From positions 1-40,917 of IMG/VR virus record IMGVR_UViG_2721755676_000008: a stretch of DNA of 40,917 nt. One strand, 5' to 3'. The translations under genes were made by a program, and so were the position numbers. This document shows, one piece after another, positions 36,472 to 38,617 of the stretch; position 1 is the stretch's first letter; each line of letters starts with the position of its first letter. Under the pieces are notes generated by a model. The model was not told the origin of the DNA. It worked only from the letters and a program-made list of their open reading frames with translations, and did not search any database. Source of the stretch: a virus. Taxonomy: Duplodnaviria; Heunggongvirae; Uroviricota; Caudoviricetes.

Positions 36472-36834
36472 ATGGCTAGCGAACGCAGTACTGATGTGCA
36501 GGCATTTATCGGGGAGCTGGACGGCGGCGTATTTGAAACCAAAATCGGCGCAGTTCTCAGTGAAGTCGCTTCCGGTGTGATGAACACGAAAACCAAAGGT
36601 AAGGTCTCGCTCAACCTGGAAATCGAACCGTTTGATGAGAACCGTGTGAAAATCAAACACAAACTCTCATATGTTCGCCCGACTAACCGCGGGAAAATTT
36701 CCGAAGAAGACACCACCGAAACGCCGATGTATGTCAATCGCGGTGGTCGCCTGACTATTCTGCAGGAAGACCAGGGACAATTACTGACTCTTGCCGGTGA
36801 ACCTGACGGAAAACTCCGCGCAGCAGGTCATTAA
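36472..36834 (+). CDS. YfdP-like protein (unknown function)
   Basis: ORF 36241-36834; probable start ATG 36472 (MASERSTD...) preceded by GAGGAG, giving 120 aa; first gene of the operon downstream of cI. Confidence 0.55.
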   Translation: MASERSTDVQAFIGELDGGVFETKIGAVLSEVASGVMNTKTKGKVSLNLEIEPFDENRVKIKHKLSYVRPTNRGKISEEDTTETPMYVNRGGRLTILQEDQGQLLTLAGEPDGKLRAAGH

Positions 36835-36899
36835 TATCGTTCTTAATTAACTGATTATTTATCTCATCACTGAATATCTTTATATAGTGAGGACTTATT

Positions 36900-37724
36900 A
36901 TGTCTCAGAACTTAGACGCAACCGCAATTAATCAAATCCATGCCCTTATTTCTGCTCAGGGTGTTAATGAAATTATCAGTAAGATTGGTGCCGATGCTGT
37001 GGCATTGCCTGAGAATTTCCGCATTCATGATCTGGAAAAATTTAATTTAAATCGCTTCCGTTTCCGTGGTGCGCTTTCCACTGCCAGCATCGATGACTTT
37101 ACCCGTTATTCTAAAGATCTTGCAGATGAAGGCACCCGCTGCTTTATCGATGCCGATAATATGCGAGCCGTCAGTGTGCTTAACCTGGGTACTATTGATG
37201 AACCAGGTCACGCAGATAACACCGCCACCCTCAAACTGAAAAAGACAGCACCGTTTTCTGCTCTGTTGTCTGTTAATGGCGAGCGTAACTCCCAGAAGTC
37301 ACTGGCAGAATGGATTGAAGACTGGGCCGACTACCTTGTGGGCTTTGATGCTAATGGTGACACCATTCAGGCAACCAAAGCGGCTGCGGCAGTCCGTAAA
37401 ATCACAATTGAAGCAAACCAGACCGCTGATTTTGAAGACAATGACTTCAGCGGCAAACGCTCTCTGATGGAGTCTGTCGAAGCGAAAACCAAAGACATTA
37501 TGCCAGTGGCATTTGAATTTAAATGCGTTCCGTTTGAAGGCCTGAAAGAACGTCCGTTTAAATTACGCCTCAGCATTATCACTGGCGATCGTCCTGTACT
37601 GGTTCTGCGCATTATTCAGCTGGAAGCGGTGCAGGAAGAAATGGCTAACGAATTTCGTGATCTGCTTGTTGAGAAATTTAAAGACAGCAAAGTAGAAACA
37701 TTTATTGGTACTTTCACCGCCTGA
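36900..37724 (+). CDS. YfdQ-like protein (DUF2303 family)
   Basis: 274-aa ORF preceded by GAGGA; length and sequence resemble E. coli prophage protein YfdQ as recalled. Confidence 0.65.
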
Positions 37725-37736
37725 TTTCATTACTGC

Positions 37737-37758
37737 AAATGCCCCTGCGGGGGCATTT
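37737..37758 (+). terminator. Intergenic hairpin (terminator/attenuator) between the yfdQ-like and yfdR-like genes
   Basis: Perfect 9-bp stem aaatgcccc / ggggcattt with 4-nt loop; the 3' arm ends in TTT. Confidence 0.5.
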
Positions 37759-37851
37759 ATGGAAACATAATTTACTCAATAATCGCCGGATGGTGAGGGC
37801 TTCCTTTTACAAAAATTCAGCGCGGTGCAGCGCATATACGTGGAGAACAAA

Positions 37852-38388
37852 ATGTCATTTATTAAAACTTTTTCCGGGAAGCATTTTTATTATGACAAGA
37901 TAGATAAAGACGACATCGTTATTAACGATATCGCGGTTTCCCTTTCAAATATCTGTCGCTTTGCAGGACATCTTTCACACTTCTACAGCGTCGCCCAACA
38001 TGCGGTGCTTTGCAGCCAACTGGTACCGCAGGAATTTGCTTTTGAAGCGTTAATGCATGATGCAACAGAAGCGTATTGCCAGGATATTCCCGCTCCACTG
38101 AAACGCCTTCTTCCTGACTATAAACGGATGGAAGAAAAAATAGACGCCGTAATCCGTGAGAAATACGGGTTACCCCCGGTTATGAGCACGCCTGTGAAAT
38201 ATGCCGATCTCATCATGCTGGCAACCGAACGCCGCGATCTCGGGCTTGATGATGGCTCTTTCTGGCCAGTACTGGAAGGTATCCCGGCAACAGAGATGTT
38301 CAAAGTTATTCCACTGGCTCCGGGCCATGCCTACGGGATGTTTATGGAGCGCTTTAACGAGTTATCGGAGTTACGCACATGCGCATGA
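37852..38388 (+). CDS. HD-domain phosphohydrolase (YfdR-like 5'-deoxynucleotidase)
   Basis: ORF 37825-38388; probable start ATG 37852 (MSFIKTF...) preceded by GGAGA, giving 178 aa; HD motif (H...LMHDATEAY) and further His/Asp ligands. Confidence 0.75.
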   Translation: MSFIKTFSGKHFYYDKIDKDDIVINDIAVSLSNICRFAGHLSHFYSVAQHAVLCSQLVPQEFAFEALMHDATEAYCQDIPAPLKRLLPDYKRMEEKIDAVIREKYGLPPVMSTPVKYADLIMLATERRDLGLDDGSFWPVLEGIPATEMFKVIPLAPGHAYGMFMERFNELSELRTCA

Positions 38389-38422
38389 GTCTTTCAACCG
38401 AACAATCACTGGAGGGGCAGCA

Positions 38423-38617
38423 ATGAACAACTTAATGACAACAAAACAAGTCGCCGAATTCTGTGGCGTTTCAATATCGACGGTGCTTCGCTGGAACAGC
38501 GTAAACAGGAGGACTGGCCAGAAATACAGACCAGATTTTCCAGATCCTGATATTAAATCCTGCCCAAATAAATGGGCATCACGCAAGATATATAGGTTTG
38601 CTGGAGTAATAGAGTAA
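38423..38617 (+). CDS. AlpA/excisionase-like small HTH DNA-binding protein
   Basis: ATG 38423 preceded by GGAGGGG; 64 aa; TTKQVAEFCGVSISTVLRW pattern typical of AlpA/Xis-type HTH; the longer in-frame ORF from 38201 would overlap the HD-domain gene. Confidence 0.5.
   Translation: MNNLMTTKQVAEFCGVSISTVLRWNSVNRRTGQKYRPDFPDPDIKSCPNKWASRKIYRFAGVIE

Follow-up and report, generated by a model that had tools for sequence, protein, structure and literature searches.

The genes yfdP, yfdQ and yfdR, followed by an excisionase gene (xis), were studied in a prophage of 40,917 nucleotides (IMG/VR record IMGVR_UViG_2721755676_000008) that fills the whole stretch of DNA analyzed, hereafter called the window. 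The region is the entire early-left (PL) operon of a lambdoid prophage of the LLS/ST64B type, with the gene order yfdP, yfdQ, yfdR, xis. Judged by their sequences, the three yfd genes are the orthologues of the equally named genes in the CPS-53 prophage of E. coli K-12, and they probably serve DNA replication or metabolism during lytic growth in the form of two modules. YfdP and YfdQ constitute a tightly linked pair in phages across the Gammaproteobacteria, and YfdR is an HD hydrolase of phages with a distribution of its own, joined to the pair mainly in Enterobacterales.

The YfdP-YfdQ pair and the separately distributed YfdR

YfdP lies directly 5' of YfdQ in all nine of a set of diverse phages (ST64B, ArgO145, Pseudomonas PG1, Thalassomonas BA3, three Vibrio phages, Xanthomonas Tenjo and Psychrobacter Psymv2), in which the identity of YfdQ to the window protein falls to as little as 29%, and in 56 of 59 species-level genome loci. 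YfdR follows YfdQ in only one of the nine phages and is found in 46 of the 59 loci, which are mainly enterobacterial, whereas YfdR-like HD proteins occur alone in 324 phage records, including phages of Caulobacter, Bacillus, Stenotrophomonas and Rhizobium. Pairwise distances are more strongly correlated between YfdP and YfdQ (r = 0.73) than between YfdQ and YfdR (r = 0.53). The adjacency of the pair, the solo occurrence of YfdR and the distance correlations together identify YfdP-YfdQ as the conserved unit and YfdR as separately mobile. The initial annotation had regarded the trio as one coherent module, which holds for the linkage of yfdP to yfdQ but not for YfdR with its distribution of its own. 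Two cases of YfdR without the pair in E. coli (H14 and H15) were deletion or truncation remnants and were not accepted as independent arrangements.

The gene assignments rest on close matches. Four open reading frames (ORFs) of the predicted positions and lengths were found (Table 1), and homology searches bear out the proposal that the first three are YfdP-, YfdQ- and YfdR-like. In BLASTP comparisons with the K-12 derivative DH10B, YfdP showed 119/120 identities (99%), YfdQ 271/274 (99%) and YfdR 174/178 (98%). The Pfam profile DUF2303 matches YfdQ with 309.5 bits, against a cut-off of 26.6, and spans residues 7-272 of 274. YfdP, for which 284 homologues were obtained, was placed in PF27127 through its identity to K-12 YfdP and the precomputed annotation of the homologues, all 120 of those listed carrying PF27127. 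The window shows 100% identity to E. coli strain 210205630 (NZ_CP015912.1), where NCBI PGAP has already named yfdP, yfdQ and yfdR. The last ORF, previously called an AlpA-like helix-turn-helix gene, turned out to be a prophage excisionase gene (phrog_1553), and the excisionase accompanies the same integrase in related loci. This 64-residue ORF carries no RefSeq annotation; PGAP calls a 'hypothetical protein' downstream of it, at about 38623-38898.

That the third protein belongs to the HD-domain proteins, as had been suggested, was confirmed by alignment with the HD protein Atu1052 (PDB 2gz4; E 1e-13), its closest solved relative, in which the H, HD and D residues are kept (AQH, HDA and AD at query positions 49, 68-69 and 119). 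YfdR strongly matches PHROG 318, which is labeled 'dNMP phosphatase' (deoxynucleoside monophosphate phosphatase), and PGAP names its product '5'-deoxynucleotidase'. Its matches to HD/YfbR-like Pfam families are sub-threshold, with 24.3 bits for the YfbR-like family PF12917 (cut-off 25.9), and it falls far short of the NCBIfam 5'-deoxynucleotidase equivalog NF003009 (19.9 vs 122). By these scores YfdR is an HD protein related to YfbR and no YfbR equivalog. It also weakly matches the phage dATP triphosphohydrolase PHROG 7076. Homology to T5 Dmp, the classic phage dNMP phosphatase, was considered and dropped, as no similarity was seen, and membership of YfdP, YfdQ or YfdR in a defense system was likewise discarded after PADLOC returned zero matches.

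In unrelated phages the pair is flanked by genes for ERF annealing proteins, YqaJ exonucleases, single-stranded DNA (ssDNA)-binding protein (SSB) and DEDD exonucleases, all confirmed with Pfam. The YfdQ family comprises 1735 clusters at 50% identity, with lengths of about 265-282 residues and no fusions among the best 150 matches. One of its members has been solved: PDB 9o7m, entitled 'YfdQ Protein', contains 36 chains of a DUF2303 protein (E 1.5e-44 over residues 16-273) from a Xanthomonas phage of the CP2/Tenjo/MET23-P3 type, 98.8% identical to the MET23-P3 protein. A literature search yielded no paper on 9o7m. The PDB holds no YfdP homologue, and because that of Tenjo is also missing from it, 9o7m is no evidence for a YfdP-YfdQ complex. 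AlphaFold2 models of the two pair proteins reached moderate confidence (predicted local distance difference test scores of 74.9 and 70.9) and had no informative structural neighbors in a fold library that extended to 2026-04-08 and did not include 9o7m; PADLOC and NCBIfam searches of the pair proteins likewise returned nothing. The description of YfdP and YfdQ as uncharacterized thus stands, since the fold searches yielded no function for either. The YfdP model comprises a long helix, a beta meander of three strands and, at the C-terminus, a disordered tail. This tail contains the motif Q-x-x-[LMI]-[FL] in 62 of 68 homologues, reading QGQLL in the window and QGQLF in most. The Q-x-x-L-F form presumably resembles the pentapeptide by which proteins bind the beta sliding clamp.

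The genes are widespread. Matching DNA was found in 4742 of the 5426 complete genomes of E. coli, at least 80% of the query being covered in 2073, and among phages in 86 records, for example those of cdtI, SfV, mEp460, Ayreon and many Stx2c phages. Architectures were counted in 80 viral contigs with an identical YfdQ, a set that consists of 100%-identical E. coli copies only and was used for these counts alone. The order yfdP, yfdQ, yfdR is invariant among them and most run on into yfdS and/or yfdT, so that the layout of the window, in which xis and int follow directly after yfdR, is that of a minority. YfdP-YfdQ is among the commoner uncharacterized early-gene pairs of temperate phages of the Gammaproteobacteria, with a single solved structure.

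The early-left regulatory region and its leader RNA

The prophage is inserted between prfC and yjjG. The proposed early-left position of the genes, 3' of cI and behind an operator-bearing leader, agrees with the sequence: the operon lies 3' of cI on the same strand and has operators in common with the cro/cI intergenic region, both left operator (OL) copies belonging to repeat family D1, as does the right operator (OR) copy at 35042. Divergent from cI are a cro-like gene, the cII-like gene YmfL and Rha. The candidate PL promoter, deduced from the sequence, was not picked up by a consensus promoter scan. From the likely PL to yfdP extends an untranslated leader of 590 nt, which folds much better than shuffled sequences (z = -4.8). 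Between cI and yfdP no protein-like ORF was found and no N-like antiterminator gene stands first in the operon. The leader ends in two terminator-like hairpins, and the fold of 36275-36475, which spans both, has a z of -5.4. The consensus terminator scan missed hairpin 1 because its loop is long. Hairpin 2 is kept in ST64B with one compensatory change (G-C to A-T in the alignment), and its segment lies within the blastn match to ST64B and LLS. The intact lambdoid context claimed by the initial annotation is thus evident in the repressor, the operators and the leader but not throughout the prophage, in which the gene for minor tail protein L is marked by PGAP as frameshifted (18371-19068 of the source locus, about 13582-14279 in the window). 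The prophage may therefore be not fully functional, or the frameshift may be an assembly error.

Table 1. Features of the early-left region and of related parts of the prophage (positions in the window unless another locus is named)
Feature	Position	Strand	Remarks
yfdP	36472-36834	+	120 aa; PF27127 family; PHROG 204
YfdP tail motif	residues ~99-105, window ~36766-36786	+	predicted disordered region
yfdQ	36900-37724	+	274 aa; DUF2303 / PF10065; PHROG 210
yfdR	37852-38388	+	178 aa; HD-domain phosphohydrolase; PHROG 318
xis (excisionase)	38423-38617	+	64 aa; PHROG 1553 'excisionase', E 2.4e-34
cI-type repressor	35077-35769	+	HTH_26/HTH_3 and Pfam Peptidase_S24 (5.9e-19); PHROG 4 'transcriptional repressor'; same strand as operon
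Intrinsic-terminator-like hairpin with T-run	35791-35808	+	directly 3' of cI; terminator scan
Two 16-nt OL operator copies	35826-35864	unstranded	TTGCATGTCTCGCAAT at 35826; TTGCACGTTACGCAAT at 35849
Candidate PL promoter	35850 (TTGCAC), 35873 (TATCTT)		17-nt spacer; overlaps second OL copy; deduced from the sequence
Conserved structured RNA element	35920-36170	+	~250 nt; invariant 19-mer GGTAGCCGGAATGTGCAAG at 36004-36022
Copies of the leader RNA elsewhere	P7 locus ~2500-2700; phiV10 locus ~1400-1740		
Terminator-like hairpin 1	36288-36334	+	GGCGGTACCAG...CTGGTACCGC, then TCTTTTT
Terminator-like hairpin 2 (long)	36335-36423	+	ends TTTTGT, just 5' of yfdP ribosome-binding site; fold
FlxA-like protein	39101-39433	+	between xis and int; Pfam FlxA 1.9e-14
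Tyrosine integrase	39694-40917	-	prophage end beside yjjG; ORF and PGAP
O-like replication protein	31994-32812	-	HTH_36/DnaD_N

The leader contains a conserved structured element that appears to be a hitherto undescribed phage RNA, either stable or related to processing. When 42 representatives were aligned, 27 base pairs in six helices found support: 98% of the cells are paired, compared with 24-39% upon sliding of the partners, and double changes are seen in 64 cells, against 18.7 ± 3.0 in shuffles, none of 500 of which reached that number. Compensatory changes occur in nine pairs. In four helices the 3' strand overlaps the very motif used for the search, so that independent covariation comes mainly from helices 4-6. 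The 19-mer is present in at least 120 viral contigs and the element in 1638 of 5426 E. coli genomes (about 30%), where it never has an annotation of its own. The P1 and P7 copies are located between trnI and ban, and others occur in epsilon15-like phages (phiV10, SPN1S) and in SJ46; in phages of the P1 and epsilon15 types the element has tRNA genes as neighbors. A tRNA gene on the same strand abuts the element in 45 of 154 loci, either a tRNA(CAT) just 5' or a tRNA-Arg(UCU) just 3' of it. The genes 3' of the element vary, encoding YfdP, the Ban helicase or other proteins, and the element is therefore no regulator specific for yfdP. Rfam 15 gave no match to five versions of the element (that of the window and four others), no tRNA or tmRNA gene was found in the window, and a search of papers for the motif sequence retrieved unrelated primers only. 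An arrangement like the putL/putR pair was rejected for want of a second copy in the window; the HK022 record has no annotation of its put sites. Of the results presented here the leader RNA is probably more original than the re-identification of yfdP, yfdQ and yfdR. The leader of the P1-type ban operon, which is unrelated to the window, contains a near-threshold match to the Rfam small RNA STnc100 (43 bits, gathering threshold 47), at 1562-1677 in P7 and at 571-690 in SJ46, 5' of tciA.

Proposed role of the genes in phage growth

The multicopy effects of the cluster were described by Noguchi and Katayama (2016; PMC4776307). In K-12, yfdQ-yfdR-yfdS-yfdT acts as a multicopy suppressor of hda-185, for which yfdP is dispensable. 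Initiation is inhibited in vivo by extra copies of yfdQRS or yfdQRT and in vitro in extracts with an oversupply of YfdQRST. The binding of YfdR to DnaA, cited in the initial annotation, is indeed reported there: YfdR is the sole DnaA binder of the cluster, requires Phe46 in domain I, and competes moderately with DiaA and DnaB. Its affinities for nucleotides are reported to be far weaker than YfbR's. The authors proposed a lambda-P-like role in the growth of the ancestral phage and pointed out homologues in SfV. The same paper cites a raised sensitivity to H2O2 or methyl methanesulfonate (MMS) of K-12 strains deleted in CPS-53 or singly in yfdQ or yfdS, the yfdQ deletion being sensitive to both agents. 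In a preprint of the Wood laboratory, YfdQ production led to plaques formed by a resident lambdoid phage (bioRxiv 10.1101/413146). Zheng et al. [quoted passage not shown] The gene set, its lambdoid context and the hypothesis of a function in phage growth are therefore all already known; the identification of annotated genes in a published context adds little of itself.

The replication and recombination genes of the prophage bear on this function. The replication module appears to be limited to an O-like protein; neither a helicase gene nor one for a helicase loader was found in it, and the O-like gene is followed by genes for PerC-like, Dam, LexA-DNA-binding-domain, RusA, KilA-N, DUF968 and Q proteins. 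In the PGAP annotation of the whole prophage there is no gene for an annealing protein, an exonuclease or a RecBCD inhibitor, only RusA being present. The window contains 19 Chi sites (GCTGGTGG), 5 on the plus and 14 on the minus strand, compared with about one expected from its base composition. All are located within 12.4 kb (22044-34479) that span the terminase end, the genes for lysis, the nin-like region and the genes for replication. The number of Chi sites and the missing Rec module place the prophage in the LLS-type class of 'no Rec module, high Chi', membership of which means reliance on host RecBCD.

According to the reading we consider probable, the genes would act upon induction. 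The repressor contains a LexA-like self-cleaving S24 domain, and its SOS-induced cleavage would free PL, from where transcription would have to traverse the structured leader and the two terminator-like hairpins to reach yfdP. YfdR would be an HD phosphohydrolase that depends on metal and has weak 5'-dNMP phosphatase activity, as published for the K-12 protein, and given the 174/178 identity the YfdR of the window likely binds DnaA domain I. There, at Phe46, it would compete with DiaA and DnaB and dampen initiation at the host origin. Action on DnaA and DnaB would suit a phage that brings an O-like initiator only and no helicase loader. YfdP and YfdQ would form a separate coupled pair that acts in lytic growth on ssDNA, DNA ends or replication proteins, as the gene neighborhood and the weak published phenotypes suggest, with YfdQ probably assembled into a large homo-oligomer. 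The trio would then be two modules joined in Enterobacterales and no single machine.

Several observations weigh against this proposal. Transcription from PL would meet two terminator-like hairpins before yfdP, with no N-like gene in between, so that expression after induction is only predicted. The initial annotation stated that overexpression of the cluster inhibits initiation, which is published but depends on genes missing here: the minimal suppressing set consists of yfdQ and yfdR plus one of the genes yfdS and yfdT, a yfdQR-only plasmid is inactive (PMC4776307), and a tblastn search of the whole window with K-12 YfdS and YfdT gave nothing better than E = 2. Because the window lacks both genes, the published initiation phenotype is not simply transferable to this prophage. 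Furthermore, YfdQ was not tightly bound to YfdR or DnaA in pull-downs, initiation was unaffected by deletion of yfdQRST, and the authors conceded that the effect of overexpression could be an artifact (PMC4776307).

The pair occupies the exact place of the Rec module of other lambdoid phages, and it might replace the absent Gam, annealing protein and exonuclease by an unrecognized recombination or RecBCD-modulating function. The ERF, YqaJ, SSB and DEDD exonuclease genes that neighbor the pair in other phages and the MMS sensitivity of yfdQ mutants would agree with such a function, and the 36-chain assembly of 9o7m would fit the ring or filament habit of annealing proteins. It is nevertheless an unlikely explanation, since ArgO145, BA3 and phages of the Xanthomonas CP2 type have the pair along with a complete Rec module, an argument made for ArgO145 by Zheng et al., who judged a hidden recombination system unlikely (PMC12315714), and the clustered Chi sites fit reliance on host RecBCD better than a recombinase or inhibitor of the phage. 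We are similarly doubtful of a more specific form of the pair's role, namely that YfdP-YfdQ is a new widespread two-protein module at the replication fork or on ssDNA, in which a large YfdQ oligomer cooperates with a YfdP tail motif that tethers or diverts host replication proteins. If true, the module would matter for phages that bring neither a helicase loader nor recombination genes.

For YfdR, nucleotide chemistry may be the main task, the protein dephosphorylating dNMPs or another nucleotide, for example a defense signal, with consequences for nucleotide pools or immunity, and its DnaA binding being incidental. Its intact catalytic residues, the names given to it by PHROG and PGAP and the weak PHROG 7076 match are in line with this, as is the spread of YfdR-like proteins among virulent jumbo phages, for which the DnaA of E. 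coli would be no sensible target. Arguing against it are the scores below the PF12917 and NF003009 cut-offs, the dissimilarity to T5 Dmp and the lack of a PADLOC match, and we give this explanation little credence. That the genes mainly serve the lysogen, for instance in stress tolerance through low-level prophage expression, seems very unlikely. The stress sensitivities of the K-12 deletion strains, the persistence of the cluster in the decayed K-12 prophage although promoter and leader were lost, and matching DNA in 4742 of the 5426 E. coli genomes would be accounted for, but the reported phenotypes are weak, in this prophage the genes would be expected to be silent in the lysogen, lying as they do behind operators under repressor control and two terminator-like hairpins, and the pair also occurs in phages without an integrase in the stretch examined, such as the Vibrio podophage 34E29.1. 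The useful experiments have thereby been narrowed: the pair is the conserved unit, its neighbors are genes of ssDNA metabolism and recombination, and the replication phenotype is tied to genes that are missing here.

Comparison with known systems

The cluster yfdP-yfdQ-yfdR-yfdS-yfdT-torI of K-12 CPS-53 (KpLE1) has the same order and orientation as that of the window, with 98-99% identity and an excisionase gene at the end. It differs by yfdS (DUF551) and yfdT, which lie between yfdR and the excisionase gene and are both missing from the window, and by the loss of cI, the operators and the leader, a regulatory region that the window retains. The two prophages also differ in the type of their excisionase and integrase and in their attachment site, which is yjjG/prfC for the window prophage and argW for CPS-53. 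Similar in layout are the early-left operons of ST64B, LLS and their lambdoid relatives in the 'no Rec module, high Chi' class, in which, as in the window, cI is followed by yfdP, yfdQ and yfdR homologues without recombination genes. The abundance of Chi is shared with LLS (19 sites in the window, 23 in LLS), and the hairpin 5' of yfdP is common to all three. The ST64B proteins are about 58-68% identical to those of the window, and ST64B has more genes between yfdR and int.

YfdR resembles two further proteins, in function or in fold. Lambda P offers a functional analogy, drawn in PMC4776307, in that both are early phage proteins that bind DnaA and inhibit initiation at the host origin. P acts on DnaA domain III and loads DnaB at the phage origin, in contrast to YfdR, an HD hydrolase that depends on Phe46 of domain I; the two are not homologous, and P is encoded in the early-right, YfdR in the early-left operon. 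With YfbR, the 5'-deoxynucleotidase of E. coli, YfdR has the HD fold class and the annotated activity in common, but it remains below the family cut-offs, and its nearest solved relative is Atu1052 (2gz4) rather than YfbR.

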